Assembly: GCF_964204645.1 (NCBI RefSeq)
Contig: NC_134034.1
Span: 5,244,914 to 5,308,913, forward strand
DNA: 64,000 nt
Direction of reading: 5' to 3'
From: Tubulanus polymorphus
Lineage: Eukaryota; Animalia; Nemertea
The notes beneath the pieces are model-generated. The model was not told the origin of the DNA. It did not search any database and saw only the letters and a list, made by a program, of their open reading frames with translations. This document shows positions 18,488 through 64,000 of this stretch, in pieces (the stretch's first letter is position 1; the number at the start of each line of letters is the position of its first letter). The position numbers were made by a program, and so were the translations under genes.

Positions 18488-18589
18488 GGTAACAATGTCA
18501 GACATAATGGTAATACCTTATATGGAAATACAGATAGATAAATATAAACGGCCAATCATCCTCTATGTCAACTGATAGTAGAGGTTATC

Positions 18590-19531
18590 ATGCAGAATGT
18601 TACGGACTTCGATGTTCCATTCTTTACAACGCTATTAAACGAGCTCCCCAAGACGAGTCCCGATAGTCTTAGGTGGATGAAAATATGTGTTATACCATTC
18701 ATTTTACTGTTTGGACTGTTAGGAAATACATTCAGTCTGATAATCATGAATAGTAACAGATTTTGTAAATCGTCTTACTCTCAGTATCTAGCTACTCTGG
18801 CTGTATTCGACACGTTCACTCTCATTGTATTCTGTATTCCGTGGATCAACATAATGAACTTCTCTCGTGTATTCCTTAAAGTCACTAGTCGTTTTGGGTG
18901 TTCGGCGTATGAATACTTCGGTATCGTTTCTGATGTTCTCAGTTCCTGGCTTGTTGTAATCGTTACACTAGAGAGGCTTGTTATAGTGATTTTCCCATTT
19001 ACATCTCGAGTTATCGCAACACCTTCTTTTGCGAGACGTGTTACTGTATTTATTATAATTACTGTATCCAGCGTTTGGTCATATATATTATTTGTCGTCA
19101 AATACGATCCGATAATAGAAATGTGCGTCATGACCAGATACTGGTACAAGGTACACTATGGAATTGGTTGTTTTTTCATTACCTATGTTCCGATATGTTC
19201 AATCGTTTTGATGAATGTGGCTATAGTAGCCACCCTCAAAAGTCGCACTGTTTTGGGAAAAGTAAAAAATACCCACAAAACTACGAATAAAGCTACGCGC
19301 GTTGTATTAACCATTTCATTTGTTTTTGCAGCACTTACAGCCCCCCTGGCAGTAACTGGGTTTGTTTCGTCCGTTATCAACATCCCACCTAAAGTTATTA
19401 GTTTCACATATGAAATCACAGGTACAGTTTACAGTGTCAACTGTGCTGTCAACTTCTATATATATCTGCTCACAGGGGACGATGTGAGAAAGTTTGTCAA
19501 GGATAGAATGCGGAAGATGGCTAGATATTGA
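18590..19531 (+). CDS. Intronless rhodopsin-like (class A) GPCR, peptide-receptor/chemoreceptor-like
   Basis: 313 aa, seven hydrophobic helices; GLLGN (TM1), YLATLAVFD (TM2), TLERL (DRY variant), NCAVNFYIY (TM7). Confidence 0.9.
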   Translation: MQNVTDFDVPFFTTLLNELPKTSPDSLRWMKICVIPFILLFGLLGNTFSLIIMNSNRFCKSSYSQYLATLAVFDTFTLIVFCIPWINIMNFSRVFLKVTSRFGCSAYEYFGIVSDVLSSWLVVIVTLERLVIVIFPFTSRVIATPSFARRVTVFIIITVSSVWSYILFVVKYDPIIEMCVMTRYWYKVHYGIGCFFITYVPICSIVLMNVAIVATLKSRTVLGKVKNTHKTTNKATRVVLTISFVFAALTAPLAVTGFVSSVINIPPKVISFTYEITGTVYSVNCAVNFYIYLLTGDDVRKFVKDRMRKMARY

Positions 19532-37423: not shown

Positions 37424-38703
37424 GCTCATCAGAATTTATGAAATCACTTTTTCAAAACTGGTTTCAAAATAATAAATTCCATCATATAAGATTTAAACCA
37501 AGGGAAACCCCATGTCTCAGAAAACATCTCAGAAAACCATTGCATTAGGCCACACCAAAAGAAAACCCTGTTTCTCGGGCCCGACCGACCTGATATTTCG
37601 TCATTTCAAATAATCATTTTCAGAATAAAATATAATTATCATATTCCTGACTAAAAATTTAGTCCAGTAAAAACTATTTACGGCGACCTACCCACTGATA
37701 GAAGAATAACCGATATTTTTTTTCTATACAGAAAATAAATGTCCTACCTACCTACCCATTTTGGGATCATTCATTTATTACGTACGCATAAAATTTGAAT
37801 TTTTCAACCCCCCCCCCTCTGTACGCAAAATCGGCCATTTTTGTCATATACACTAAGCATCACAGAACGCAATTGCACTGACCCCTCCCCGAATGCATAC
37901 GTAATAAATGAATGACCCCTTACAGTGCCATACAGGTTCAAGGAATGAAGTATCTATTTGGTATGCTTATGATGCTAATAACATTAAATTTTCTTTTTCA
38001 GAGATGGTTGGAAAAGAAAAAAGTGACATACGACCAAAATCTAAACAAACCACAACTTGTTAAACTATGTCAAACTCAGTCACCAAATAAACTTTACAAA
38101 TCAGAGCAGCTGATTCTCGATTCTGGACACGAGCTACTGATATTACCAGTCAAACATTGCGAGCTCAACCCAATTGAAATGGTTTGGCACCAGATTAAAG
38201 CATATGCAAAGAAAAAAAACACAACAAACAAACTGAAGGATGTGGAAAAGCTAATCATTGAAGGGAGAGAACTAGTCACGGCGGAAAATTGGAGAAACTA
38301 CGAGGATCATGTGAAGAAAATCGAAAACGAATTATGGATTAAGGACAAATTATCAGACAATCTAGTAAAAAATTTTGAAACTAATCATATTGTAATAAAT
38401 CTGAATGATAGTGATGAGAGTGAGGATGAGAGAGAAAATGAGAGAGAGAATCAGGGTGCGGAAGATGACAGTGAGAAAGATGGAAATATGTCTAGTGAGG
38501 GAGATGAGAGCGAGAATGAGGTTTGTGCGGTGTGTGGAGAGAAGGATGATTGTGGAGATGATCAGCTGGTTGAATGGGTAGCTTGTAGTATGTGTGATCG
38601 CTGGTTCCATGTTTCTTGTTTAACCAATCATGATTCAGAAAATTTCAAATGCAAAAGATGTGAAGATATTCTATGCAAATCAATGTACTTTTTGGAACCG
38701 TAA
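33411..38703 (+). CDS. Seven-exon DD83E transposase with acidic linker and C-terminal PHD finger; frame appears intact
   Basis: Exons 33411-33573, 34222-34354, 35181-35288, 35441-35574, 36551-36751, 37172-37320, 38002-38703 with compatible phases. Motifs YLDETWIN, VMDQASYH, HCELNPIEMVW; PHD CAVC..CSMCDRWFHVSC..CKRC. Confidence 0.88.
33933..34156. mobile_element. PIF/Harbinger-type MITE family A (inverted copy 34848-35089, deleted copy 36142-36235)
   Basis: TWA-GGCTAAAAAAA..GATACCTTGTTTCTCC termini with TTA/TAA duplications. Confidence 0.85.
34545..34702. mobile_element. PIF/Harbinger-type MITE family B (inverted copy 37763-37919)
   Basis: TAA-GGGGTCATTCATTTATTACGTA...TACGTAATAAATGAATGATCCC-TAA. 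Confidence 0.85.
37548..37762. repeat. Repeat family C (GGCCACACCAAAAGAAAACCCTG...), inverted copy at about 39418-40088
   Basis: Reverse-complement matches at 39420-39545 and 40010-40088. Confidence 0.75.
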
Positions 38704-42922: not shown

Positions 42923-44524
42923 TTACCGCAAGTTTTTGTAGAATAGAATATGTTTGGGCATTCTAATAACAGGATTGGGTCCATTAGTTAAACTTATCAA
43001 GTCGTTATATTCCTGGCTATTTGTGTATGCTTTGTGAAGAGATATGATGTTTCTTCGAAGAGGCAAGTTGAGGGTCTGGAAACCAACCCCGTTATGCGCT
43101 AATTTAAACTCGATTTGATTATGATTTTCTTTAGACACGCGAAGTTGCATGATATCGGGCCATTTAATTGCCACGCCCTCTTCTGACAATCGCGAAAGTA
43201 GAATACCGAATGACTGTGACAGTGCTTTGAAATCGAAAATGTCTTCAGTACAGACATCTGTGACTTTGTACGGACGAGAACATGCCATTTTCACCAGTAT
43301 CGAGAGTTGAGCTGGAACACAAATGTCTCCAGTTATTTTTAGAGCTCGCTCAATCACGCTATGGACTGAATCCCCTTCAGACTGCCCATGGTTAGTTTCG
43401 AAATAGAAAATAGTGATGTCTCGGAGGTTCACGCATTTCCCTAATACATATAGCATCATTCCACATACGATTGAATTTTTGTTTTGCCCAGCACATCCAT
43501 CACAAAACAATGAAGCATGTTCAAACCCTTGTTTGTCTGCTTCTAAGAGATATGCCGCAAGATGCGAGGATATCTCATTGGAACCTCTTCCGGCAATAGA
43601 CTCGTTCCACAAATAGCAATGGCCCTCTTTCGTCTTGATATAGAAGATCGAAAAATTGTAGCAGGATGGTCTCCTTTTGTAAAATACTTCACAGCGATTC
43701 GATTTCGGAAGAAAGATGACCTGCTGAAGATCAAAGGAAGCTACCAGTCTCTTGTCGTCATTCTCATCTTTGTAAAACTGTTTTATCTGCCTAACTTTCT
43801 GTTTTTCCGAGATATGTTTTTCGTATTGACTTCGTAAGTTGTCTCTCTTCTCCAGTTGCGTTGCGAAACCCCTCACAAATACCACATAAGTCTTTCTCCG
43901 TGATCGGATAAAAAATTCATACTGTAATAAGAATGCTTTGTTTCCCGTCTACTCTCTTCGGGTATATCCGAACATTTTAGACCATTCATACTACAATATC
44001 GGCTTTCGCATCGAGGTTTCGGAGAGTTGCGCGCTTCAACAACATTTGATGTTATGTATGTGTTTCCTTTTACACGGGATTTTTTTACCTGCTGTCTTCT
44101 CGATTTCTTGGGGGCAGGTTCTGCCGTTCTGAGCATATTACTTAGATCTTCCATCGGTTCGCCTTTAACTTGGAAGTCCCCAGGTCGACAAGTCGTTTCA
44201 GGGGAACAGAATTTACATTTTTCCTTAAAGTGAATGTAACAAAACACTCGTAAACGTTTGACATGCCGCAAAAATTTCGTCATTGCAATTCGATGTTTCG
44301 CATATCAAATTATGTACGGAGCTATCTGGCACATAGTCGGGATCATCGCTTCGTTCATCATCATCATCCTGGTTCTCTCCACATGTAGATGTTCTGTACC
44401 TTTCGACTATTTGTTTGATGCGCTCCTCTGGAGTTGGGATATCATACCGGCCGGGGAGGTGGCCTCCCTGCTCATACTGAACTGACATGGATCTGTTCCT
44501 AAAAATCACATTCTTCAATCCCAC
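42923..44524 (-). pseudogene. Sola-like (probably Sola1) transposase, intronless, frameshifted at the 5' end
   Basis: FDLQQVIFLP, FYKRR, RGSNEISS, FCDGCAGQNKN, HGQSEGDSVHSVIE. Confidence 0.75.
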
Positions 44525-47420: not shown

Positions 47421-48791
47421 TGAAATTTTCGATTGTTGATTGTTGATTGTTGAGCGTTTCAAACCACTTACTTACAAAAAAGGCGTGGTATCCCTGAACC
47501 CTTAGTTAGATTGATAATATAATATTTCATTATAAAAATACACATAACCTTGTCGCAGGGATGATAATTCCCCGAGGTTTCTCACGGATTTCGGTAACGA
47601 AAAATATCATTTTTCCCAATAGTCCAAAAATGGTGTAAAGTATATGGGGGGTTGATGATGGTCTCACAGCCGGTTCGCATGAATAAAGAAATACCGCAGA
47701 TCTTATAGGTCGGCGTTCTCATCCCAGTTGGCGGCGATTCACGAAAGATAACATTTACATTTACATTGCAATTAAATTTTAGTTTACATTGGTTTTTAAG
47801 CCGCTTTCACACCACACTATTTAGGAAGGTCTAAATTTTACCCGTTCCACTTTTGAATGGACTAACCTGGAAAAACCTAAAATACGAACCGATGTCCGTT
47901 CTATGTTTTGCAACGAACCAATATATGTGTGGAGTTCCAGCTCCATTCTTAATCTTAGTTTTGAATCTATGCTATGAATTAAATTGACATATACGCACTG
48001 TTCACTTAACCTAGGTCACTACATCGTCAGTTTAGACCAGTCTAACTAGTGCTGGTGTGGAGACGGCTTTCGTCTACTTGTGATCGTGAATCAGTTCATC
48101 AGTTTATCATTTTGATCAAACGATCTCAGCTATTTATTTTCATATAAACGCGTTATTCAATGGACGAAGGATCATCGTTATGATATCGTCATATTTACAT
48201 CGTCTATATACGTATCACCAACAGTGAAATCGATATCGCAACTCAACATACGTTTAGATAGAGAACTAAAGCATGCATAAGCCTTATGATGATTCCACCG
48301 ATGACCATTTGTAATTAATCCATTTGAATTTCATTCATATAATTATCGATGGTTTATAGGCAAGATATACGTCTGATGCGGCATGGTTCGTATATATTTA
48401 GAATTTAGTTATGGTTACTTTGTGTTCAGCCTGTTTCAAAAATTTCTTAAAATTGTTTCAATGTATAAATGTATGATCACGACGTAAGAATAATTAATTA
48501 TTATTGTCAATCTCTTTTCATCCCTGAAAATCTAGGAATTGACGGTGGAAGCAATTCGGAGGGTATCATGTGTCAAATTAGGAATGGCGAAAATAAACCG
48601 ACTGCGGAAACAATGAATGACTTGGAAGAACCTGTAAATAGTATGTACCATCATACATACCATTTTGTATCGACACGATCTTACTGATTATTATTTATGT
48701 TTCCTGAGTAATTGGAAAAGTGGGCTTTCATACCAGAGTACCAGAGTACGAGACACCTCTCATCACTACAAGTAATTTTTTTTCCTTATAA

Positions 48792-49085
48792 ATGGGAGAT
48801 AGAAAAGCATTCTTAGCAACAATAAATAACAGAATAAAACCAGCAAAAGAACAATTTGAAATAAAAAAGTTAGTTGATGTTACAAAAGAAATTGAACATA
48901 AAATATTGAAATTAGAAAAGATAAAAACTAAATGTAGAGAGAAAGTATCAGCTAATTTAAGCTACTGTAATGTTAGTACATCGCAAGAATTTAAAGTATT
49001 TTTACCTGATAAATGGGCTTCATTGAGTACAGAGGAATTAAAAGATTTAGAAGGATTTAAAATAATCTATCATGGAAAAAAATGA
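48792..49085 (+). CDS. Maverick hypothetical protein
   Basis: 97-aa Lys/Glu-rich ORF preceded by a T-tract and TAAATG. Confidence 0.5.
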   Translation: MGDRKAFLATINNRIKPAKEQFEIKKLVDVTKEIEHKILKLEKIKTKCREKVSANLSYCNVSTSQEFKVFLPDKWASLSTEELKDLEGFKIIYHGKK

Positions 49086-49826
49086 AGATGGCCATCATGA
49101 TTTAGAAATTGTTGATTAAATTTAAAAAAATAAATTAATAAAAATAATGAATATCTAGAATCCGAAATGACTTATCTGGACAATTTAATTGCTCCGCATA
49201 GATAGACAAAAATAGTGAGATATTTAATTAATTAAAAAAAAAATATTTTTTTTTGCTTTTTTTCTAAAATATTAATCCATTTTTTTTATTGTCAATTTTG
49301 GGATTTCAGAAGTATAGCAGTTGTTTCAGAATTATTAAGATCATGAATTTTATTTTGATTTCTTATACCAACTACACCCAATCAAAATGAATACAATTAC
49401 AAATCCAGCTGTAAAATATAGACATTTATCAAATATTCTAAGGAGTAGAGATAACAATATTTTCACCATTTTTATTACTTATTTTTTCTTTTACAGCTTT
49501 TTTATATTCTCGTGATTTAATTTCTAATTACCGAGACCATTCAATTTGTTTCTGAGTTCTCGGTTTTTTCTTCACTTCTTCCACCTTGTTCATTGTTTAT
49601 AGAAATATCTTTACTTTCAATATTTGAAAATGTTATAACTCCAGTTGATAATAATGTCATAAATCCACCTAATTGAAATGATTAATATCCAAACCATTTA
49701 TTTAATTCGGTCATAACTAGATAATCATTTTTTAAATCAGCATATAATCTATTTTCATCTTGAATTGGCAGCATATAATTACATAATTTAACCTTTTACT
49801 ACATTTTCTGATATCGCGTCATTAAT

Positions 49827-52800
49827 TAGGGTTTTCTGTTATTTCACAGAAAACCCTATTGATATCCGCGTGATTATTATTATTATTATTTTCTTCCACA
49901 CTATTTTTACCAAAAGAACATAGGCTTTGTTACCTTACCGCTGTTTCATATACAATCCATATAATATCGTCAAGCTCACTGAGATCTACAAATAGCCCGC
50001 GTGTTTTTTTCACGAATCATCGTTACAAAAGCGCTGTCGGGCTGTAAACATCGAAAATTTAGCCCCATTCAATGGGGCGACATGTTTTTCGTCATCCCGA
50101 AATCAACCCGCAGGCCGACTGTCACTTCGATTATCAATTCAAGTATAAATGAACTAATTTATTGCCGCAGACTTCACATTCAGTCGCGGTCTTCAAACAG
50201 TGATTTTAACAATAGCCCATTTTCCTCATCAAATCATATTACCGATACACTGGAAATTTACTACTTTAGATTTTAAAAGCACTGTCGAGCCGTAAACATC
50301 GACGAATCGACGTGTGTTACTACATCGACGTTCCGGGGATGAGCTGCGAGTTTCTCCTCATCATGAGAATCAAATCGAGTACAAATTAATTTATTACTAC
50401 AAGTGATTTGGCTGCGGGTTTCAAGGAGTTAGTTTAACAATACCTTTTTTTCTTTACCGAATTAACCGTGTATTTACTAAGATAAATCTTTAGTGTACCG
50501 GGGAATCGTAGGCCTAAACTAAACAGGCCGAAGAGATATGGCGGAGAAAAGCTGTTATGTCGACGAGGTATCAAAATAAAAGAATATATTACTTTATTCG
50601 GCCGCGGGCTTCAACCATTTATCAATACTCTATATTTCCTACAGTACATACCGATCATTGTCAAATGCACAAGGTATTTACTAAATACAAGTATATAACA
50701 CACTCCTATCCATATGCTGGACTCACACTTGACATTCGGAGTAAGCGTTCGCTCTGGGGGAAAGGAGATCGTTCGCTGTGTCGCTTGAAGTGTTTATCGA
50801 GTTTTACGCGACCTTAAGGCTTTAGTATGGTGGCTGATAAGATAAAAAAACATGAATATGCAAATGAGGGCGACATTACGACAAAACGACAAAACTAAAA
50901 TAACGCGAGAAAACAATGATTTTGATTTTGTCGCCCGCGACAATTCATTATTTTGGTTATGTCACACGCGACAATTCAATATTGTGGTTTTATCGCCCGC
51001 GACAATTCATTATTTTGGTTTTATTGCTTGCGACAATTCATTATTTTGGTTTTGTCGCCCGCGAAAATTCAATATTTTGGTTTTATCGCCCACGACAATT
51101 CACTACTTTGGTTTTATCGCCCACGACAATTCACTACTTTGGTTTTATCGCCAGCGACAATTCATTATTTTGGTTTTGTCGCCCGAGACAATTCATTATT
51201 TTGGTTTTATCGCCGGCGACAATTCATTATTACGGTTTTATCGCCCGCGACAATTCATTATTTTGGTTTTGTCGCCCGCGACAATTCACCATTTTGGTTT
51301 TGTCACCCGCGAAAATTCATTATTTTGGTTTTATCGCCCGCGACAATTCATTATTTTGGTTTTGTCGCCAGCCACAATTCATTAGTTTGGTTTTGTTGCC
51401 CGCGACAATTCAATATTTTGGTTTTGTCGCCCGCGAAAATTCAATATTTTGGTTTTATCGCCCACGACAATTCACTACTTTGGTTTTATCGCCCACGACA
51501 ATTCACTACTTTGGTTTTATCGCCAGCGACAATTCATTATTTTGGTTTTGTCGCCCGAGACAATTCATTATTTTGGTTTTATCGCCGGCGACAATTCATT
51601 ATTACGGTTTTATCGCCCGCGACAATTCATTATTTTGGTTTTGTCGCCCGCGACAATTCACCATTTTGGTTTTGTCACCCGCGAAAATTCATTATTTTGG
51701 TTTTATCGCCCGCGACAATTCATTATTTTGTGTTTTGTCGCCAGCCACAATTCATTAGTTTGGTTTTGTTGCCCGCGACAATTCAATATTTTGGTTTTGT
51801 CGCCCGCGACAATTCAATATTTTGGTTTTATCGCCCACGACAATTCATTACTTTGGTTTTAACTCCAGCGACAATTCATTATTTTGGTTTTGTCGCCCGC
51901 GACAATTCTTCTTTTTGGTTTTGTCGCCCGCGACAATTCATTATTTTGGTTTTATATTTTGTTTTAGTCGCCCGCGACAATTTTTTTTTTGGTTTTGTAG
52001 CCCGCGACAATTCTTCTTTTTGGTTTTGTCGCCCGCGACAATTCATTATTTTGGTTTTATATTTTGTTTTAGTCGCCCGCGACAATTTTTTTTTTGGTTT
52101 TGTAGCCCGCGACAATTCAATATTTTGGTTTTGTCGCCCGCGACCATTCATTATTTTGGTTTAATCGCCCGCGACAATTCAATATTTTGGTTTTATCGCC
52201 CGCGATAATTCATTATTTTGGTTTTATCGCCCGCGACAATTCATTATTTTGGTTTTGTCGCCCGAGACAATTCATTATTTTGGTTTTGTCGCCCCCACAA
52301 TTCTTTTTTTGGTTTTGTCGCTCGCGACAATTCATTAGTTTGGTTTTGTCGCTTGTGACAATTCATTATTTTGGTTTTGTCGCCCGCCCCAATTCAATAT
52401 TTTGGTTTTATCGCCCACGACAATTCATTACTTTGGTTTTATCTCCAGCGACAATTCATTATTTTGGTTTTGTCGCCTGCGACAATTCTTCTTTTTGGTT
52501 TTGTTGCCCGCGACAATTAATTATTTTGGTTTTCATAATTTTAGTTTTGTCGCCCGTGGTTTTGTCGGAACATTAAGTTTTTTTGTCGAACAGTGTGTTA
52601 AGATTGTTTTGGAAATTTACTCGGTCTGGTATATTTTGGATTACTGTGTATGTCATTTGTCAGGACATTAAACAGAAGACGACTTAGGATACTACCTTGC
52701 GTGACTCCACTAGTTAGACCGTCTCATTCCAAGATGAGGCGTTCCGTTGATTTCGGTTACAAGTTTCCGTTCAGAGATAACTGCTGAGCCATTTGGGCGA

Positions 52801-52941
52801 CCTATCATTGATACTGTTTCCTAATAGCCTGTTTAGTAATGGCTGATGTTGAGCCTTATCAAATGCTTTGTTGAAATCCCCCGTTGAACAGGATTCTAAG
52901 ACTGTGCACAAAACCCGTTATCGCTGCTTTGCAGCTATATT
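49827..52941 (+). mobile_element. Non-autonomous Helentron-type (HINE/DINE-like) element inserted at T|T in a Maverick ORF
   Basis: 5' TAGGGTTTTCTG..CAGAAAACCCTA hairpin plus (ATT)n; 3' AAAACCC sub-TIR followed by GCTGC-TTT-GCAGC hairpin and TATATT; no TSD; removal restores RTAR-INDAISENVVKG. Confidence 0.8.
50925..52560. repeat. 31-bp tandem satellite array (about 50 units) with a 12-unit (372-bp) higher-order duplication
   Basis: Unit CGCCCGCGACAATTCATTATTTTGGTTTT(A/G)T; same variant series at 51061 and 51433. Confidence 0.95.
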
Positions 52942-53241
52942 TCTAGCTGTTCTCGCGGTTTCATAAATCTTAAATAATCTAATAATTTCATCTGATTTCA
53001 TTGTATCTAATTCATTATAAGTTAAATTTTTACCGATGAAATTTTTACATTTTCCAGATGCTATTAATATTTCTAATTGATGTTTACAATAAAGATGATA
53101 TTCATAATTATTATTTGTTGTAACATTATTTAAAGCACCATCATCTGGAGTTAATTTTGTTTCTGTTATTCCTAAATCATCTAAAGTTTTTTCAATTGGA
53201 ACATCACCATTTTTAGATTTTATTTTCTTTTCACCTCCCAT
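52942..53241 (-). pseudogene. Maverick hypothetical protein, N-terminal part; remainder lies left of 49826
   Basis: TAAATG start; frame continues across the Helentron insertion. Confidence 0.65.
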
Positions 53242-53269
53242 TTATATAACAAAAAAATTAGTTGTGATG

Positions 53270-53545
53270 TTGCAACTAGAATTTAACTAGAATGTAACTA
53301 AAAATCATCTAGATTAACAAACTAGTTGAATTATTATTGTTTTTATTTATTTCTTGTTAAATCTAGTTGATTTTTGTTCCAACTACCAATAACTTGAATT
53401 CAACTAGAATGTAACTAAAAATATACTAGATTAGAAAGCTAGTTAAAATATTGTTGAATTTTATTTGATTTTTGTTTCAAATACCAATAACTAGAATTCA
53501 ACTAGAATGTAACCAAAAATGTAATAGATTAACAAACCAGTTGAA
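53270..53545. repeat. Three imperfect ~110-bp intergenic repeats in the Maverick
   Basis: Recurring AACTAGAATGTAAC(T/C)AAAAA...TAGATTA. Confidence 0.7.
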
Positions 53546-53546
53546 T

Positions 53547-54156
53547 TTAAATAAATTCATATTTAAATGGGTGTTGTAATCTAAATAGTAATTTTGATCT
53601 TTTATCATTTTTCAACTTATCCATATACTCATTATGTAAATCATGTGGAATAATATCATTTTCTTCAAGCGCATTTTTCATCGATTTTCCATCTTTATTA
53701 TAAAAGTAAAACTAAAAATCTAATGTTTTCTCTAAAATCTTTAACAATTGAATTATATTTTTGATTTAAAACCCAAGTTGTTATCCCAAAATGTCTACCA
53801 GAAAAAGCTAAATAACATAACTCACTCTCTCTAATTTTTGAATCATGTAAATTTGCACAATCATCTATGATAAATAATGTATTTGATCCTTTATAAATAT
53901 CAATTGCTATTTTTATACAATTATCTAAATTTTCTTTTAGTGTTTTAGGATCTAATATAATAAATTTATTATATCTAGTAATATTTCTATCATAAGCTTG
54001 ATTAAATTCATATGTTGGACAAAATAATACTATATTATCAAAATAGTTTTTATAAACAGTTTCTAATAAATTTAATATAAAATAAGTTTTTCCACAATTT
54101 GTTACGCCAGAAACTAACATATTATGAGGCTCAAATATAAATAATTCCTTATTCAT
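53547..54156 (-). pseudogene. A32/FtsK-like packaging ATPase, frameshift near 53700
   Basis: Walker A SGVTNCGKT, Walker B LFIIDD, SGRH arginine finger, VLNQ. Confidence 0.9.
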
Positions 54157-55283
54157 ATTTATATTTTTAATTTTACTTGATAATATCCATTCATTGAATT
54201 TATCTGGCCATCCAACCCATTTTACTAAAGAATATTTTTTTCTTTTAACAGTTTTTGTTTTTAATACTTTTTCAATTTTATATTCTTGTTCTAGATTTTC
54301 AGTAGTTAAACTCAATTCTTCTTCATAAAAATACCCATCAACTTCTTCACCATCTAAATCTTCTAATTTATAGACATATGGTTTTGTTGTTATTACCTTT
54401 TTTATTTTATATATTTCCCTAGTAAAATTTCGATCGTATCCTTTGTCAATTATCTTCTTATACTTAGAAATTCTAACATTTTGACCAACTTTAAATTTAG
54501 GTTCACCAAAATCATCTACAAGAAATGCTCCATATAAATTATTCCAAACAATTTCAGCATTTTCAGGTTTTGTAGCATCAATAGGTATCATTCCAATAGA
54601 AGAATGATAAGAATTATTATATCCTTCTATCAATTTTGGTTAAACATCAATCCATTTAAAAGTATTATTTGCTGTAAAATATTTCCACATTCTTGTTCTT
54701 AATGTTCTATTAAATCGTTCAACAACTGCTGCTTTTTATCCGATTTTGTTGAAAAATATTTAATATTATGATTATCTAAGAGTTCATGAACAAGTGAATT
54801 ATCAAATTATTTTATTTTATGATCAAATTGTATTTTTTCTGGTTTTAGTTTATCACCCGAAAGAAATTTTCTTAAAACATGTGATGTTTGTGCAGCATCT
54901 TTTCTATAAAGTGGGAAACTCCATACATAACGACTAAAAATATCAATTATATTCAATATCAACCAATAATCATCATTATCTTTCTTAACATTTTTCATAT
55001 CAATTAAATCTCCTTGCCACTGTTGATCTATATAACTTACCATAGTTTTACGAGTTTTATATTTTCTAATAATTTTTTTATGTGTTGTATATGTTGGTTG
55101 TTCTAACATAAATTCATTTATATCTTTATATTTAACTAAATTTTGTGGGATTATCTTATCTAATTTATCTTGTTTTACTTTACGCCATATATTTTTGGTA
55201 GAAGAAGCAACCGAACTCTCAGGGTCGTAATATAAATTTCTTAAATATTGTTCTTTAGTATTAGGAGTTTTTTTACCACCCAT
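54157..55283 (-). pseudogene. Retroviral-like (rve) integrase with C-terminal chromodomain, frameshifted
   Basis: QWQGDLIDM, IDIFSRY, PEKIQFD, VVERFNRTLR, YNNSYHSSIGMIP; chromodomain YKIEKVL..VKWVGWPDKFNEWI. Confidence 0.92.
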
Positions 55284-55313
55284 TTATATATCGTTAATTT
55301 TAACTTTATATTT

Positions 55314-56562
55314 CTAATATTGAATACTATCTAATTGTGAATTTACAATATTTAATTGTGCGTCAGATATAATATAAATGTGCATTTTAAAATTTAAGCT
55401 TCCTTTTTTCTTTTTCATGAATAATTGTATTCCGTCTTTAGTGTTCTGTAGTTTTTTCCCAGAACCATGTAGTGAATTATCCTCTGTTGTTCTAAAATCT
55501 AACGATAATGCATATTTATTACCGGTATAATAATCAATTTGATTAATATTACAATTTTCAGATGATTTTACTTTTTCATTCATAAAATGTTTTCTAATTT
55601 CTGGCCATTGATCTATCATTCTCATTCCTTGACATAATATTTTTTTTGCTATTCATTCGATTGTTGTTTCTACTTTTTTTTATTTCAGGATTATAATAAT
55701 TATCTACCTTTATTGCGCCATTAGAATATGTTGCAATGGTAAAAAATATTAATATACCTTTAATAGATCTTCTTGGGAAGTTAATATTCTCATTAATTAT
55801 TTCATCATTTGAATTAATAGTTACAGTTTTAAATTTATCAATATAATCATATAATAATGAAAATCCTTGATTGTATTGAGTTTGAATTGTGTTAGCAATA
55901 TTTTCATTAGTTGCTGTATCATATTCTAAACATATATTCGATAATTTATAACCCATATATTTAACAACGTTAGATAATACAATTTCATTTACAGGAGCAA
56001 ATGTTATCTCAAATATAATATCTTCTTGAATTGCATATTTATATAAAGGTGCATTATTATTTATCAATTCAAAGTCTAACGGAATTTTATATTTGCTTCC
56101 ATAAATCTGTTTAATCAAATTATCTACGTCATTAGCTACTACTGCATTATTGGCTTCAGATCTTAATTTATTTTGGTTTTCTGATTGGATGCCTTGAAAT
56201 ATCATATTATTTCTATTTTATTTAGTTAACCATAAATCTTTATAATGCATAAATAAATTATAATCATCTAATGAGAAAACTGTTTCTGGACCAATCTTTA
56301 TTGTTAATTTTTTAATCAAATATCTTCCAACATTATCAACAACATAATTATTATTATTACCGGTTACTTTTATATCAGCTGATAAATAAATACTATTTGG
56401 AACATAAAAAGTATTTTGTGTTAATCGAGGAATTCTAACATATAAAGTTTCATCGGGAATAATATTAGAAGGGTTATGAGTAATTATATGATGAGATCTT
56501 TCTGCTTTAATAGCATTAGATATTCTATGATTCTTAGAAGGATTTATATAACTCCCACTCAT
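55314..56562 (-). pseudogene. Probable major capsid protein (double jelly roll), split into three ORFs
   Basis: About 415 codons, beta-rich (YKIPLDF, YKLSNICLEYD, ENINFPRRSIKGILIFF, HGSGKKLQN); size and position fit a Polinton MCP. Confidence 0.65.
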
Positions 56563-56582
56563 TTATTTAACAAAAAAATTAA

Positions 56583-58004
56583 TTATTTATTTTTGATTAT
56601 GTTTACTAACCCAAAAATAATAGCACTTACAACTGTAATTAAAAATAAAATAATATGTTCAGCAGCAAAGTTAATAATGTTCCCAGCAGATTTCAATATA
56701 AAACCAACAATTGATGCAATAATTCCTGGTAAAGCTGCAGCAGATTTTTTAGATAGTTCCCATAAATATTTTGCTAATTTTTTTAAACCATCTTTAACTT
56801 TATCTTGTATAGAATTATTATCATTCGGGGGTTTATCCGGTTTATTGGGAGTAGGAGTAGATTTCAATGAATTTGATATAGCTAAACCAATTGTTGTAAA
56901 TAACATAGTTGTTAGAATTGAAAGAATTGTTATCCCTTCTAATTTAAATAATAATTTTATTCTATCTTTCAATGATATTTCAGAATTTGGTTTTATCAAA
57001 AAATCTTTGAAAATAACTTTTAATCTATTAATATTATAATCATATGATTTTAATAATAATTTAATTTCATCTTTTTGTAATTCTATGTTATATTCTAAAT
57101 CATCTTTTTCTTTTTCTAAACGTAATTCTTTTTGCCTATATTCTATTTCATCAATTACTTGATGATCTAAATCAGACTTTAATTGTTCTATTTCTTTATT
57201 TTTATCAGTTAATTTATCTTCTAAAAACATAATTTTTTGATCTCGTTCTAATTTTATCTCAGAATTTTTATCAGCATCCTTTCGTATACTAAATATTTCT
57301 CTAATTGCTTCATCAGAAAATATATTTAAATCTTCTAATTCTTGATCTGTTGCATCAAGTAACCCATTTTGTAAAAGTTTTTCAGTTTGAACTTCGGTTG
57401 ATTTAAGTTTACTAGTTTTGGAATTAATAACTTCTTTAGGAATTGTATCTGGTTCTAAATTTTCATTAATTATCTTCAAAAAATCATCATTTCTTCGAAT
57501 AAATTCTTTTCTATTTAGAGTTATCTCTTCTTCTGTAACATCAGTTACAACATCATTATTGATTTTCTTAATTCTAGATTGTTCTAATTTAATTAAAGTT
57601 GGTTTTGTTATTATTTTATCGCGACTTTTATTAGAAGAAATCTTAAAATAATAGTCATCTTTCAAATGCCAATAATAATCACCATTTAAATATTTCAAAT
57701 CTTTTACTAAATAATTCACACCTTTATTTGTTATATTGAATCCAGATTTTTTTAATATTGGTTTGAATTTATCAGTTAATTCGTTATATTCGTTATCTTT
57801 TTTTGCTAATTCTGGTACTTCATTTTCAATATTTATCTTTGAACGTGTTTTATCAATATATTCAGGTGTAGTTAAATTAGAATTATATTCTGTTTCATTA
57901 TCGTTACTGAAACTTGTATCATTAAATTTAGGTGGTTGTTCTTCAGTTATACCGGGTTCATCAAAAGTATCCATTCCAATATTTTCTCCACCTTCTACAT
58001 CCAT
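56583..58004 (-). CDS. Maverick coiled-coil protein with C-terminal transmembrane helices
   Basis: 473-aa ORF with a charged heptad region and hydrophobic segments near the C-terminus. Confidence 0.7.
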   Translation of the reverse strand: MDVEGGENIGMDTFDEPGITEEQPPKFNDTSFSNDNETEYNSNLTTPEYIDKTRSKINIENEVPELAKKDNEYNELTDKFKPILKKSGFNITNKGVNYLVKDLKYLNGDYYWHLKDDYYFKISSNKSRDKIITKPTLIKLEQSRIKKINNDVVTDVTEEEITLNRKEFIRRNDDFLKIINENLEPDTIPKEVINSKTSKLKSTEVQTEKLLQNGLLDATDQELEDLNIFSDEAIREIFSIRKDADKNSEIKLERDQKIMFLEDKLTDKNKEIEQLKSDLDHQVIDEIEYRQKELRLEKEKDDLEYNIELQKDEIKLLLKSYDYNINRLKVIFKDFLIKPNSEISLKDRIKLLFKLEGITILSILTTMLFTTIGLAISNSLKSTPTPNKPDKPPNDNNSIQDKVKDGLKKLAKYLWELSKKSAAALPGIIASIVGFILKSAGNIINFAAEHIILFLITVVSAIIFGLVNIIKNK

Positions 58005-58117
58005 TTATATAAAAAAAAATTAAAATTTAAAATATAATATTCCTCCTATAACAATTCCTACACAAGTTAAAGCTAATTTAGTATTTTCATGGGATTTATT
58101 ATCATTATCAGTTTTAA

Positions 58118-59182
58118 TTATATCATGTTGAATATTATCAGTTTTAATATTTTCTGATTATTATTGTATTTATTAGTGTAACCAATTATGTTTCCCATCT
58201 TTATTACTAAATCATTATAAATAATTAATAGCTTAGGGCCTATACAATAATTTAATCTAATATGTGATTTATCTAAATAATTTTGATATCTTACAATGTT
58301 TTCTGGAATCGATCTATTTTCATCATTATGAATTGAATCTTCAAATAATACTTTGAATTGTTTCTGCGTATCGAATGAAGTGTTATCATTTCCAATTATT
58401 GGGGATCTTGTTTCAACTTGCGCACCTAAAATACATATCAAATAAGTTCTAATAGATTGATTTATTCTTTGTATTCCAGCTTTAGTAAAACCTTCACTAT
58501 TTTCTAAAATGAAATAAACCCAACCATTATTGTTTTGTTGTTGTATATTATTATAATATTTTGGTAATTCAATCCAATTTAGTTTTCTTATATCTGAATT
58601 TGTCATTATTTTTCCAAATTCTTTAGTATATAATATTCTTAATCCACCCATTGTTCCAATTTTTGCTCTAAAATCATTATTTGAATTAATATTAAATTCA
58701 TTACATATTTTATAAAACTTAGAAAAATTAATATTATTATTCAATTCTCTAAAATATTTTGAACCAGGTAAAGGACATTCTAATTCATCTAATATTAATT
58801 TTATTTGAAAATAAGTATGAAATCTAAAAAGTGATAACATCAATGGTAAACTTGGTTTATTTAAATGATCATTCCAACTAATTCCACATCCTGTTGTTGC
58901 ACAATAAGCAGCAAAATTTAATTGGTTCTGCCAATACTTCATATTAGATTTTAATAACCATTGTTTTGCCTCATTTAAATTTTTAAAATTAATTGTATAC
59001 ACATGAAATATATTTTCCATCTTAACATTAAAATAATTAGTTTCAGTAACATAAATATATAAATCAATTAATGAATTTAAAACTTCATTTCTATATGAAA
59101 TATCTTTATTAAAATCTATTGCAGGAATATTAAATTTAATTGATTTATTATATGGGAAAGCTTTTGGAAAACTATCTACCAT
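58118..59182 (-). CDS. Maverick hypothetical protein
   Basis: 354-aa ORF, TAAATG start, motif WQNQLNFAAYCATTGCGIS. Confidence 0.65.
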   Translation of the reverse strand: MVDSFPKAFPYNKSIKFNIPAIDFNKDISYRNEVLNSLIDLYIYVTETNYFNVKMENIFHVYTINFKNLNEAKQWLLKSNMKYWQNQLNFAAYCATTGCGISWNDHLNKPSLPLMLSLFRFHTYFQIKLILDELECPLPGSKYFRELNNNINFSKFYKICNEFNINSNNDFRAKIGTMGGLRILYTKEFGKIMTNSDIRKLNWIELPKYYNNIQQQNNNGWVYFILENSEGFTKAGIQRINQSIRTYLICILGAQVETRSPIIGNDNTSFDTQKQFKVLFEDSIHNDENRSIPENIVRYQNYLDKSHIRLNYCIGPKLLIIYNDLVIKMGNIIGYTNKYNNNQKILKLIIFNMI

Positions 59183-59305
59183 TTATAAAATTAAAAAATT
59201 TATAATCTATTAATTCTTTTAATAATTCATCTTGTTCTTCAACTGTTATATGACCTTTTAAACTTATTATATAATCTAATGTATTTTTCAATTTATTAAT
59301 TTCTT

Positions 59306-59623
59306 TTATATTAGTTTTAATTTTTCTTTATTACTTTTTATATTTAATCTTGAACTTATACCAGTTAAAACACTTGAACTTAATCCTAGCACACCAATTG
59401 ATATAGCTAAAGGTGTTAATGGTGAAAATATTGCTAAAAATGTTATTACAGAACTAATTGTAACTGAACCACTAATAATAAAATAATATATAATTTTAGA
59501 TTTTAAATATTTTTTCTTTTTAACTTTTAAATCATTTTCAAATTCTAATATTTGTTTTTCTAAATATGTTTTTAATTTAGTTTTATTTATATCATGAGGA
59601 ATGATATCAATATTATCATCCAT
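59306..59623 (-). CDS. Small two-TM protein
   Basis: Two hydrophobic helices; TAAATG start. Confidence 0.6.
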   Translation of the reverse strand: MDDNIDIIPHDINKTKLKTYLEKQILEFENDLKVKKKKYLKSKIIYYFIISGSVTISSVITFLAIFSPLTPLAISIGVLGLSSSVLTGISSRLNIKSNKEKLKLI

Positions 59624-59696
59624 TTATTTAGCAAAAAAAATACTAATTAGTAAATCTATACGCTACAAATATAACAATAACAGTTCCACCTTAAAT

Positions 59697-60065
59697 TCAA
59701 ATGATTTCATATTTCTGTTGTTCTTTACTCGGGGTATAATAATCTGATAATTTAGGTTTGTATAGATGTAATTTTTCTTTATTGGTTACCGCGTTATATA
59801 AACTCATTGCATCGTCAACTGATTGAAAATCTCTATGTGAAATCTTCTGATCATATAATTCCTTGTTAATATAATCCATATAGTTTTGCCTCTTTTCTCT
59901 ATATTCTTCTGCTGCTTTATTGTATTTTTCTAATGCTAAGTTATGTCTTTTTTGTTCTGTTAATGATCCATTTTTATCAATATGTTTAAATAAATAACCA
60001 CCACCAGTAAATGCTAAAGCGTTAACAATTGCCGATCCTATAATAGTTATAACTGCAGAAGCCAT
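59697..60065 (-). CDS. Small Maverick protein with hydrophobic N-terminus
   Basis: AIVNALAFTGGGYLF..EQKRHNLALEK; TAAATG start. Confidence 0.6.
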   Translation of the reverse strand: MASAVITIIGSAIVNALAFTGGGYLFKHIDKNGSLTEQKRHNLALEKYNKAAEEYREKRQNYMDYINKELYDQKISHRDFQSVDDAMSLYNAVTNKEKLHLYKPKLSDYYTPSKEQQKYEII

Positions 60066-60315
60066 TTATTTAGTAAAATAATTACGCAATTATATGGGAG
60101 GAATATATTTTTGTTTTTCTAAATAATCAATAGTTAAATTAGATAAAGTAACTGCTAACGTTAATTTTAGATTTGATATCATTGATATCAAATCTATCAA
60201 CATTAACACTTCCCATTTTAAATACTTTTTTTAATACCATTGAATAACCAACAGTTCCAACTGATAATGCGCCATTATATAATCCAGTTATTATCCACTT
60301 ATTATCACTCATTTA

Positions 60316-60609
60316 TTAATCAAAAAAATTACTATCTTCAAAATATTTAGTTATCTTATTTATGATTATTTCAACATTTATTTCATTACTAGTTTCATTT
60401 GTATATATTTCAATTATTATTTTTTTAATATCATCGATGATAAAATCTTCATCTAATTCATAAAATCTTAAAGATTCTCTAATTAAATTAGTAATCTTTT
60501 CTACATTTAAAGTTTCTTTATCTATTGTTGTTTCATACTCAAATGTTGTTTCATTAGAAAATGCAATATTTTTAATATGTATAATTACATCAGTAATGTT
60601 AAATTTCAT
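60316..60609 (-). CDS. Small acidic hypothetical protein
   Basis: 97-aa ORF within the gene array. Confidence 0.4.
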   Translation of the reverse strand: MKFNITDVIIHIKNIAFSNETTFEYETTIDKETLNVEKITNLIRESLRFYELDEDFIIDDIKKIIIEIYTNETSNEINVEIIINKITKYFEDSNFFD

Positions 60610-60684
60610 TTCTTTCTCACGTTTAAAATCAAACCCAAAACATATATTCGGTCCAACAGTTATATTTATTTATATATCAAAAAA

Positions 60685-61437
60685 TTACTCTTTACATCTT
60701 ACAACTAATTCATAAATTACAGGAAAGTTATTCAAATCAATTAAGTATCCATTATGATTACTTATTTCTAATTTGAGATTATTGAAATGTGGAATACAAG
60801 GTTTAAAATCACAATCAGCTAAATTATAATTTATTTGCGTTCCAAATTGTTTAACATTTTTTAATGGTAAAATATTTAATATACTAGAATTACAAATTGT
60901 ATCTTTAGTTGTTTCAAATGTTTTTGTAGGATTAATTAAATTACAATAAATATAGAAATGTGTGTAAGGTATTAAGTTTGATCTACCTTCTGCGTTTACT
61001 GTAACAATATCTGGGTTAATTCCTAACAGTTTAGCTAAAGGTTTTCTTACTATAAATTTAAATTGTTCATCGTGAGCTAACCTAATCTTTATTTTATTAG
61101 AACTTTTTGAAAATCTAATGTTAAATCCGGAATCACTTCCTAATTTAGCTCGAGCTTTTTTATTAATTTCTTGCGCTAATGTATCTAAATTATATAATCC
61201 TGGTTTTAATATATAAAAAACCATTTATTCCTTTTTTTGTAAAAGATTGAAAACATTAAATGTTCTAGACTTTTATTCGATATATTATGAAAAGAATTAC
61301 ATAAACTTATATTAACTAATTTCAAATCAACACAATTCTTAAATTCTCTATCTAATTGTACTAGTAAATTATGAGATTTATAATTTGTAAGTTTTCTTGA
61401 ATCAACAATACATTCTGTATTCTTTTAATTCTACCAT
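60685..61437 (-). pseudogene. Possible minor capsid (penton, single jelly roll), 5' part disrupted
   Basis: KPGLYNL, FYIYCNLI, ILNILP, LKLEISNHNGYLIDLNNFPVIYEL pattern. Confidence 0.55.
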
Positions 61438-61507
61438 TATTTATAACATTAAAAAAATTACCGCTCATCACTAAAAATTAATTTTAATAAAATTTTTCCT
61501 TAATAAA

Positions 61508-61686
61508 TGGATGAGAAGATAGCATGTGAAATTTGTGGTGAACTTCTAAGAAAAAGTAATATGGCACGACATATGAAAAAACATGATGAAAATTATAACC
61601 CCCCTAAAATAAACTGCCCAAATTGTAATAAATTATTCTCAAGAAATTATGTTAAAAAACATTCAGAGAAGTGTAAAATTAATTAA
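61508..61686 (+). CDS. Small zinc-finger protein (below the ORF-track cutoff)
   Basis: MDEKIACEICGELLRKSNMARHMKKH..CPNCNKLFSRNYVKKHSEKC; TAAATG start. Confidence 0.6.
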
Positions 61687-61867
61687 ATTTTTTAAAATTA
61701 AAATTAGCAACGGCTAATGTTGATAGTAACGAAAGTAATAGTAATTCTGTTGAAGTTGAACCTGAAATTATTTGGAACAGACCTTTCTTATTCTATGATA
61801 AGGATAATATAAAAGATCATTTCTGTGAGCCTTGTCGAATAAAATATAGCCCTGAAAATATAGAAGA

Positions 61868-62299
61868 TTGGGAGAATCATCAATTCGTAAAGTACATATA
61901 GATAAAATTTCTAATAAATTTGAAGCAGAATTCAATGAAAGAAAAAATAATATATTAGAAAAAATGAAATATGAGAAAACGTTACCAGATAATAAAGAAA
62001 CAGTTGAAAGGTTAGAAAAACAATATAATGAATTAACAAGAAAAACATATTATCGTAAATATTGTAAATTGATTATTACAACAAGTAAATCAAATCTACA
62101 AAATAGAACAATAAAACATAAAGAAAACGTAAGAAAATACCAAGAGCTTAACGAAGATCTATTACTAAGAAATGATAGACAAAAATGCCCAAAATGTACT
62201 TATGAGTACTTAAGACAAGAAGGTCCTGTGATATTTTGTAATGTAGTGGATGGCAAAAGAATTTATGGGGTGATGAAAAAACTAGAAATATTGTTATAG
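61868..62299 (+). CDS. Maverick hypothetical protein, probably a fragment of a longer decayed ORF
   Basis: Coiled-coil-like region plus CPKC; non-ATG start in the track. Confidence 0.35.
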   Translation: MGESSIRKVHIDKISNKFEAEFNERKNNILEKMKYEKTLPDNKETVERLEKQYNELTRKTYYRKYCKLIITTSKSNLQNRTIKHKENVRKYQELNEDLLLRNDRQKCPKCTYEYLRQEGPVIFCNVVDGKRIYGVMKKLEILL

Positions 62300-62838
62300 A
62301 ACCAAAATTAAAGTATCTAGATGAAATATTTAATATATTTTCTACGGAAGATCATACACCAGAATATAAGCAATGGCTTGAAAAAATGAAAATAAAAATG
62401 GTGAAATAACTAAAAAAGATATAAGAAAAACAATTATTCCATCAACATTTAACACACAAAAAAAGAAAATGTATTTATATTTATTATTTAACGATTATTA
62501 TAAAAAACCTAAATTAACATAAGAAGATATGGAAAATATAAAAGAAACATTCAAAAAAATATTAAGATATTATGTGGATAATAGAATAACAGATTCAATT
62601 AATTATGAATTCTTTTTAAATAAGATTGTAAATTATTTAAACATCGATATTATAATTCCATTTGATGAATTAACAAACAAAAAGAAACAAAGAGAGCGAG
62701 ATGAAATGTGGTACAAGATAGAACTTTATTTAAATGAGAAAAAATGAAATGGAAGAACCTAAACAAAATTATACAAGAACAATTAAATGAAAAAGAAGAA
62801 ACCAATAGTGATTTCGAGTTTGATGATATTGATCCATT

Positions 62839-63294
62839 TTAATAACCATAAGGTAATGTTTTTATACCATCATCTAAAATATGCCTTTTATCATCAAATG
62901 GATTCAAACTAGTTTTTTCAACTTCATTAATGTACATCTCGTGATCTTCTGATCTTAAACAATTCATTTTGTGTTTCATTACAATAGAGTTATATAAACA
63001 CTTTATATAATCTTGAAATTCTATATGTTTATCAACCACATGTTTTGTTATTCCTTTTAACTTTTTAGCTTCATGATCTTTTGTTCTGTAACTATACATT
63101 TTACTTCTTATCCCAACAAATTCAATAATTTCATCACCCTCTAATTCATCTTTAAATTTACCAGGAATCTTTTTATCATCATTGCTAAATAGTTCATGAT
63201 CTTTGGGATAATTGCTAAAATCAAAATGATGTTTTAATGTTTTTAAGTCTTTTGTTATGTCATTTGTCTTGATTTTTAGTATGTACGCATCCGT
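62839..63294 (-). pseudogene. Protein-primed family B DNA polymerase, C-terminal extein
   Basis: TDAYILKI (second half of motif C), FDFSNYP, PGKFKDE, FVGIRSKMYSY, KKLKGI, KTSLNPFDDKR..TLPYGY*. Confidence 0.93.
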
Positions 63295-64000
63295 ATTGAA
63301 GCAAATTAATGGAAATCCGCAGTTAAATGTACCATCTTCAGATGATAAATCATAAACATAATGTGTTGGGTTATATATTTCAAATAAGTCTTTAACTTCT
63401 TCAGTTAAATCTTTTTCTGTGTGGCTTAAATTAAAGCAATTTGGTTTAGATTTAATCAATCCAATATTCATATTGAAGCCTAATGAATTACATAATATAT
63501 TAAACCCTGATATAGCAACTTTTCCTTTTTGAGCTAAAGATATTGCTGGAGAACTCGTAAATTTTCGTTAATCTCGTTAATTTTAGCACCATCTGCTGCG
63601 TAGAATCCAATGAAGAACCATTTTCTTAGATTATCTTTAGCATTTAATACATAGTCTGGAACTATCTTTTCTTAAACTGTAGTATTACTTTTAACTATTG
63701 CATGGATATAGAATTCGTCATTATATTTTGTAGCAAAATCCTCAGGGTTATTTACAAGTATTCTATAAACTGCTGTTGATTTCATATGATCCACGATTCT
63801 AAATGTTTTATGTGAATAAACTTCTTCACAGAATTTCTTAATTCTTTCTAATAATTTCAAATCTTGATTGCATAAATACCAGCAATATTGAGTGCGATTA
63901 ACATATTTATACACACCTGCTGAACCATCACCCATGAAAAATCCATTGATAAAATATTCTTTTTCTTCTAATGTTTGAGGTTCTATATTATAAATATTAT
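63295..64000 (-). mobile_element. Intein with LAGLIDADG homing endonuclease inserted in PolB motif C; N-terminal splicing domain lies beyond the window
   Basis: Block C FINGFFMGDGS, blocks D/E KIVPDYVLN..FFIGFYAADG, block H QKGKVAISGFNILCNSLGF, blocks F/G YVYDLSSEDGTFNCGFPLICFN followed by +1 Thr; one stop (63672) and one frameshift (about 63560). Confidence 0.88.

Follow-up and report, generated by a model that had tools for sequence, protein, structure and literature searches.

The closest described counterparts of the locus analyzed here are the pol-c inteins of Mimivirus and other Nucleocytoviricota. As far as the available parts of the sources go, these inteins interrupt PolB at the site YGD/TDS (the slash marks a splice junction), start with Ser, end with Asn in front of a Thr of the extein and contain a TxxH motif and LAGLIDADG motifs (PMC549080; PMC5784728), and all of these features recur in the inteins described below. 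Archaeal pol-c inteins (L017, L018, L021, L027-L029) also share the motif-C site and the junction residues. A survey of eukaryotic inteins reports, in its accessible text, nuclear inteins in fungi and a few protists next to plastid and viral ones, the viral inteins belonging to giant-virus families including the invertebrate iridoviruses and to unclassified viruses (PMC5784728). Animal-infecting viruses and eukaryotic nuclei were already known as intein sites from that text, but the iridovirus and fungal inteins are neither integrated in animal chromosomes nor located in protein-primed polymerases (PMC5784728). Metazoan genomes are stated to be devoid of inteins in the consulted part of a review (PMC8529194).

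Next to these inteins, nuclease domains of the HNH and VSR type are known as inserts within the protein-primed PolBs (pPolBs) of Polintons, at least from the accessible text of two studies (10.1101/2023.08.22.554363; PMC11161782). In the available part of one of them it was suggested that the nuclease inserts stem from intein invasions (PMC11161782). The text of the other, on which the former draws, describes HNH and VSR inserts as far as accessible and has no match for intein, Hint or LAGLIDADG (10.1101/2023.08.22.554363). PLVs encode GIY-YIG and HNH genes according to the text at hand (PMC12220804), and the available main texts of four further studies make no mention of inteins (PMC8097293; PMC11131425; PMC8502044; 10.1101/2024.03.25.586562). 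Within the literature searched and its accessible main texts, no description of a Hint-domain intein in a Maverick was found.

Here, a stretch of 64,000 nucleotides from the nemertean Tubulanus polymorphus (NC_134034.1, positions 5,244,914 to 5,308,913), in the following called the window, was analyzed. In it, the catalytic motif of a Maverick pPolB carries a broken pol-c intein of the LAGLIDADG type, which belongs to an intein clade that likely originated once from a giant-virus polymerase and likely spreads among Mavericks by homing; we hold this reading as a whole with good, though not full, confidence. Judged from the sequences, what looks new is the kind of host, i.e., a protein-primed Maverick polymerase in animal DNA, while the pol-c homing intein itself and its chemistry look ordinary. 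The intein lies in animal chromosomal DNA, yet its carrier there is a virus-like element that has integrated rather than a gene of the host. The features of the window are collected in Table 1.

Table 1. Features of the window; positions are counted from its first nucleotide.
Feature	Position	Strand	Evidence or remark
C-terminal two-thirds of pol-c LAGLIDADG intein	63295-64000	minus	profile of 103 PolB inteins; 57-64% identity to P0006 intein
First LAGLIDADG motif EYFINGFFMGDG	63924-63959	minus	acidic residue retained (GFFMGDG)
In-frame stop codon within endonuclease domain	63672-63674	minus	
Second LAGLIDADG motif WFFIGFYAADG	63588-63620	minus	acidic residue retained
Reading-frame change zone	63545-63581	minus	similarity to P0006 shifts between frames
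Splicing blocks F and G, YVYDL...ICFN	63295-63360	minus	terminal Asn, penultimate Phe
C-terminal Asn codon of intein	63295-63297	minus	
+1 Thr codon of C-extein	63292-63294	minus	
C-extein: +1 Thr and C-terminal 151 aa of Maverick protein-primed PolB	62839-63294	minus	
AT-rich Maverick body	52900-64000	minus	21-26% GC (host DNA 34-43% GC)
Probable major capsid gene, three ORF pieces	55314-56562	minus	Pfam Capsid_N E 0.003, first piece only; no PHROG match
rve integrase fragment	54807-55283	minus	Pfam rve E 2.4e-5, below cut-off
Chromodomain, then A32-like packaging ATPase	53698-54639	minus	Pfam Pox_A32 E 3.8e-11, Chromo E 4.7e-5
Host-side DUF7869 ORF	42923-43948		
Host-side ORF with DDE_3 and PHD	37912-38703		
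Host-side intronless rhodopsin-type GPCR ORF	18548-19531		
Host-side retroelement gag/protease-like ORF	11525-13300		
Host-side HECT fragment	5602-6441		

The insert is located exactly at D/T of motif C. Each motif quoted by an initial annotation of this DNA was found at its position on the minus strand. From 63998 on, this strand reads NIYNIEPQ...EYFINGFFMGDG..., a stop, WFFIGFYAADG and then the frame change, and the ORF 63567-62839 passes through YVYDL...ICFN and TDAYIL into 151 residues of polymerase. The C-side pol-c junction, Asn/Thr at 63295/63294, falls inside the window at the site where intein-free sisters read YFD-TDS, and block F, the terminal Asn and the +1 Thr are all present (YVYDL...N/T, 63360-63292). 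About 127 N-terminal residues of the intein (about 380 nt), predicted to include blocks A and B, fall past position 64000. Two types of profile match show that the resemblance to an intein exceeds chance. With an X placed at the stop, the N-terminal piece exceeds the Pfam cut-off for LAGLIDADG_3 (24.7 bits vs. 22.5; E 2.8e-5). Moreover, 103 PolB inteins from outside Mavericks (PF00136-type, giant-virus-type) served as the sole input of a profile, which was run against the 1437 stop-free segments of all six frames of the window and matched three collinear segments (E 8.2e-26, 7.7e-9 and 1.4e-15; profile positions 134-232, 236-275 and 271-359), the next best segment reaching only E 0.23. On its own, the C-terminal piece has no match to the splicing models of Pfam and NCBIfam. 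The identity to the intein of P0006, a metagenomic pPolB, is 57% over 139 aa and 64% over 83 aa. A homologue search with residues 1-110 of the window ORF matched 0 of 132 candidates, and phage records gave no match. PDB sequence matches to tissue factor (E 0.13 or worse) were dismissed as chance, and a fold prediction from a single sequence (pLDDT 39.9) was set aside as unusable.

The insertion is not open and in frame in the window copy, and this copy is unable to make a splicing precursor. The stop and the frameshift near 63560 reported earlier are both real: the stop occupies 63674-63672 and the frame change could be placed within 63581-63545. A further sign of decay proposed in the initial annotation, and its remark on the penultimate residue, have to be read differently. 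The change from TDS to TDA was taken as a mark of a dead polymerase; it rather represents a lineage state, because the fragment P0271, the nearest relative with an intein, also reads N/TDA and TDA occurs in 5 of 71 intein-free pPolBs. The penultimate residue is indeed Phe and not the usual, non-obligatory His, but lack of His is common here: a survey of 119 listed relatives (12 unparsable) gave 115 parsed inteins with Lys in 76, His in 33, Ser in six and Phe in none. A non-His penultimate residue is normal for this intein family, and the Phe of the window copy may possibly reflect decay.

Intact relatives were found with residues 60-242 of the window ORF as query, which retrieved 66 proteins among 416 candidates. 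These are mostly long pPolBs, several with PF03175, and in P0006 the polymerase matches DNA_pol_B_2 (E 5e-17), identifying the extein as protein-primed PolB. The C-extein of the window is 74-83% identical to P0002-P0005, which have no intein and an uninterrupted motif (YFD-TDS), and 59% identical to P0006. P0006 is a protein of 1693 aa from a JGI metagenome contig with an insert of 354 aa reading YGD/SVTSD...VTEDH...IISN/TDS, i.e., Ser1, TxxH and Asn/Thr. Next to DNA_pol_B_2 it matches LAGLIDADG_3, and it matches Intein_splicing (E 4.5e-7) and TIGR01445 (E 7.8e-5) under their cut-offs; the relative P0079 passes the cut-off of Intein_splicing (37.7 vs. 35.8). In P0006, P0079, P0089, P0093 and P0094 the reading frame is open and residue 1 is Ser; VTEDH, the TxxH of block B, is present in all five full relatives, and both acidic LAGLIDADG residues are retained in each of the five full inteins examined. 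The fragment P0271 is closer to the window, with 70% identity in the intein and 83% in the C-extein, and ends IVKN/TDA.

A structural model of the P0006 intein based on an alignment of 67 rows (pLDDT 93.5) has its best PDB matches in the endonuclease inteins TliVMA (E 5.5e-18), PI-PfuI and PI-SceI, and its best named viral matches in PolBs of a phycodnavirus, Pandoravirus, Marseillevirus and Megavirus. The model predicts a Hint plus endonuclease fold for this relative of the window copy. These data bear on the alternative that the polymerase has acquired a fused nuclease domain that does not splice, as other Polinton polymerases have with their HNH and VSR inserts. Such inserts are known, as far as the accessible text goes (10.1101/2023.08.22.554363), and the penultimate Phe of the window copy would fit with it. 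However, the catalytic DxD is divided by the insert, the relatives have lost none of the splicing residues and show a complete Hint fold, and clean alleles with and without the insert differ by exactly 346 aa. The known HNH and VSR inserts differ in just these respects: Hint or LAGLIDADG domains are not mentioned for them in the available text, whereas the insert described here has splicing blocks and divides the active site (10.1101/2023.08.22.554363; PMC11161782). We regard the fused-nuclease explanation as extremely improbable. The intein-bearing pPolBs carry, besides the intein, an Endonuclease_7-like insert or one that, going by its motif, is VSR-like.

A search with the P0006 intein yielded 1885 proteins, the best 120 of which were examined. 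Among these, the pPolBs P0079, P0089, P0093 and P0094 share 43-47% identity with the query and the rest are almost only PF00136 PolBs with 30-42%. Furthermore, the representative search yielded 18 short fragments, 15 of which are nearer to pPolB inteins than to other inteins, and therefore further copies of pPolB inteins exist. Neither the window ORF nor P0006 retrieved a relative when viral contigs were scanned, and a metagenome scan returned eight loci, four giant-virus-type PolBs and four without an intein match, and no Maverick. A pPolB extein is absent from the 80 best viral loci and from 25 prokaryote loci. Going by their exteins, the intact intein-bearing relatives sit in other Mavericks and the animal copy in the window is the broken one.

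The initial annotation had proposed kinship with giant-virus pol-c inteins, and the 103-intein profile, the trees and the fold search agree on it. Trees and fold search both place the Nucleocytoviricota pol-c inteins as the group nearest to the pPolB inteins. The lengths are alike (337-354 aa for the pPolB inteins compared to 351 aa for the Mimivirus PolB intein, according to the available source text, PMC549080). Their exteins differ: that of the pPolB inteins belongs to an integrating Maverick and is protein-primed (PF03175 type), whereas that of the viral inteins is an RNA-primed PolB (PF00136). The identity between the two groups of inteins is 33-42%, the pPolB inteins form a clade of their own, and the window copy resides in animal chromosomal DNA. 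The best IMG/VR loci for the P0006 intein are giant-virus MAGs (38-42%). Archaeal pol-c inteins are 29-33% identical to it over a partial length only, its N-terminal part, and form a separate clade (100/100).

In trees of 110, 41 and 28 rows the pPolB inteins are one clade, with supports of 99, 99 and 100/100, respectively. Rooted with the archaeal outgroup, they nest among giant-virus-type inteins, and the latter were held together without the pPolB inteins in 0 of 200 bootstrap trees. A clade of 16 rows marked by a star (support 98) unites the pPolB inteins with nine giant-virus-type inteins, and the ending GFPLI is common to the pPolB inteins and one giant-virus subgroup. Taken together, the sequence comparisons favor a giant virus as donor and a Maverick as recipient, short of proof. 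A sister-group relationship, in which the Maverick inteins stand beside those of giant viruses owing to a shared unsampled source or to an old exchange in the opposite direction, is unlikely in our judgment. It gains from the AU test, which did not reject an arrangement placing the Maverick inteins outside a clade of giant-virus-type inteins (p 0.0745; LG+G4 on 28 rows, 13 of the 41 being left out), from the long stem of the pPolB intein clade (0.35-0.39) and from deep branches with support mostly below 95. It conflicts with the nesting seen in both rooted trees, with the starred clade, with the shared GFPLI ending and with the far greater diversity on the giant-virus side, which holds 103 of the 115 parsed inteins.

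Besides the direction of transfer, the initial annotation had suggested homing as a possible means and a co-infecting Maverick as the recipient. While the direction from giant virus to Maverick remains favored, with the reservation of the AU result, true homing across such distant targets is doubtful. Homing between very distant PolB genes was argued to be implausible for Mimivirus and archaea in the accessible text of PMC549080, and rare recombination at the shared D/TD is therefore the likelier route. The event is not particular to this element: all pPolB inteins found fall into a single old clade that spans at least five polymerase lineages, which indicates, from these trees, that the invasion of pPolBs is old and family-wide.

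The intein tree and the polymerase tree were built separately, as the initial annotation had recommended, and the intein clade (100/100) is set against a patchy distribution on the polymerases. In the polymerase tree (75 rows, FastTree, three rows skipped) the starred branches force five changes between presence and absence of the intein, and the nearest polymerase to that of the window is intein-free. Six of the seven intein-plus rows are inside one polymerase clade of 27 rows (99). P0089 belongs to another pPolB family; its intein is 42-49% identical to the other pPolB inteins and its polymerase only 24-25%, and a sideways move of the intein is therefore needed. For P0006, P0079, P0093 and P0094 the identities of intein and polymerase are similar (45-50% vs. 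42-49%), which would fit long co-descent and speaks against ongoing homing.

Sister Mavericks with and without the intein, which the initial annotation had proposed to look for, do exist. The 90% cluster of P0079 has 136 members, of which 15 on contigs of 57 kb to 1 Mb were examined: seven have an intein of 346-348 aa, six have none and two end short of the site. The exteins of both types are 94-99% identical and the alleles differ by exactly the 346-aa insert. In this comparison, which covers proteins only and in which the 13 copies are related and not independent, all ten fixed differences between plus and minus alleles (1191 columns) fall at residues -7 to +44 around the site. Homing endonucleases leave a co-conversion of flanks along with homing. 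The clustering is the pattern expected for homing with flank co-conversion and, on these protein alignments, would represent a homing-like footprint. The empty members read YFDTDA (three), YTDCDS (two) or YGDTDA (one) at motif C; DTDS is thus found in 0 of 6 of them vs. 62 of 65 other intein-free pPolBs, and they differ from each other most at the site (0.10-0.13 vs. mostly below 0.06 elsewhere). These altered motifs may represent escape from cutting by the endonuclease. The intein-free family members with this altered motif C (TDA or CDS) are P0199, P0201, P0202, P0203, P0205 and P0206.

Alternatively, the intein might have entered Mavericks once in ancient times and then been inherited and repeatedly lost, with little or no present-day homing. 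The agreement of intein and polymerase identities among P0006, P0079, P0093 and P0094 and the concentration of six of seven intein-plus rows in the 27-row clade (99) point in this direction. On the other side stand the P0089 intein in a polymerase of only 24-25% identity, the clustered fixed differences on both sides of the site, which precise loss would not leave, and the intact acidic LAGLIDADG residues in all five full inteins, and the scenario of a single entry followed by loss appears improbable to us. Going beyond the preferred reading of a giant-virus-derived clade spreading by homing, a live lineage of animal-genome inteins can be envisaged, which would home through multi-copy Mavericks in host nuclei with empty copies escaping by codon changes in the catalytic motif. 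This extension is tentative and in our estimate falls somewhat short of an even chance; if true, Mavericks would be partners of large cytoplasmic DNA viruses and a route for inteins to animal germlines. With the alleles that have and lack the intein, copies of a single repeat family provide a natural system for homing that is open to study by DNA sequence alone.

For an intact copy, the residues predict class-1 splicing, in which the acyl shift at Ser1 would be followed by attack of the +1 Thr and cyclization of the Asn, restoring motif C; splicing would be required there, as the insert parts the catalytic aspartates. The freed endonuclease would cut the empty motif-C site of sister Mavericks within the same cell, and repair would copy the intein plus some flanking codons into the cut element. 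More speculatively, a co-infected cell might have been the place of first entry, with a large DNA virus as the source; illegitimate recombination at the shared D/TD would be a likelier route than ordinary homing, and Maverick integration might then have brought the intein into the animal germline. The pPolB inteins are evidence, directly from sequence, that genes have passed between giant viruses and Mavericks, and they back the intein invasion of Polinton polymerases suggested in the accessible text of PMC11161782.

The element from about 52900 to the end of the window is a decayed Maverick with many genes broken. With its pPolB, an rve integrase, an A32 ATPase and what is probably a capsid gene, it resembles Maverick/Polinton elements and animal adintoviruses as described in the available texts (PMC8502044; PMC8097293). 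No adenovirus-like protease was matched by Pfam among the scanned element ORFs within the window, past whose end such a gene may be located, and no terminal inverted repeat, 6-bp target duplication or terminus was recognized there, where only one end of the element could fall. All 30 bins of 52000-64000 are covered by four sequencing runs, which come from two studies and share one species label. In the second study, raw reads (1934 million letters) are 142-198 deep on the intein part and mostly 90-95% alike, the picture of a multi-copy repeat that has diverged. From this, the element is estimated to be present in several copies or more in any genome above 100 Mb. The lower depth on the intein (142, 198) compared to the C-extein bin (354) was considered as a sign of intein-free sister copies and dismissed, because the bins of the element vary from about 90 to more than 1000.

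These data also bear on the explanation that the element is a contaminant or a misassembled viral contig and not part of the animal genome, which we consider very improbable. The missing terminal repeat and target duplication leave some room for it, and no long read was seen that joins host and element. Nevertheless, the reads of the second study span the whole element under the same species label with the depth and divergence given above, many genes of the element are broken, and the contig also bears repeats of the host and a GPCR of the rhodopsin type; the clusters resembling this GPCR all stem mainly from animal phyla (ten rows shown, scores 0.96-0.97). The location in an animal genome, as stated in the initial annotation, is upheld by this host-side gene on the same contig.

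Related inteins were also noted elsewhere. Long giant-virus-type PolBs of 1800-2800 aa (P0074-P0078, P0080-P0086 and others) apparently have more than one related intein each. Type II topoisomerases (P0087 and L108:6001-7158) carry inteins of the same family, one of them at a D/TD-like site reading DQD/.../TDG, and three inteins are apparent in P0087. Contigs of bacterial and archaeal MAGs (L009-L015) encode PolBs with giant-virus-type inteins and are probably mis-binned viral DNA.

The regions 50919-52533 and 53367-53564 of the window hold a satellite with a 31-bp unit in about 51 copies, which is very deep in the reads, and a 98-bp tandem duplication. Two ORFs of the element (56583-58004 and 59306-60065, minus strand) contain hydrophobic stretches, have no Pfam match above cut-off and may be candidate counterparts of the membrane-active accessory genes of Beta adintovirus, as far as these are described in the accessible text (PMC8502044). 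An AT-rich island at 48700-49900 may be a piece of this Maverick or of a different one that other repeats have set apart. Most full-length genes of the element (53241-61224, minus strand) start with TAAATG, often behind a run of T, and the ORF 48792-49085 (plus strand) of the AT-rich island lies behind the same promoter-like motif. TAAATG is found at the start of 8 of 17 element ORFs of at least 60 aa vs. 28 of 417 ATGs overall. This start context resembles a poxvirus late promoter and hints at a putative dependence of the element on a cytoplasmic helper virus.
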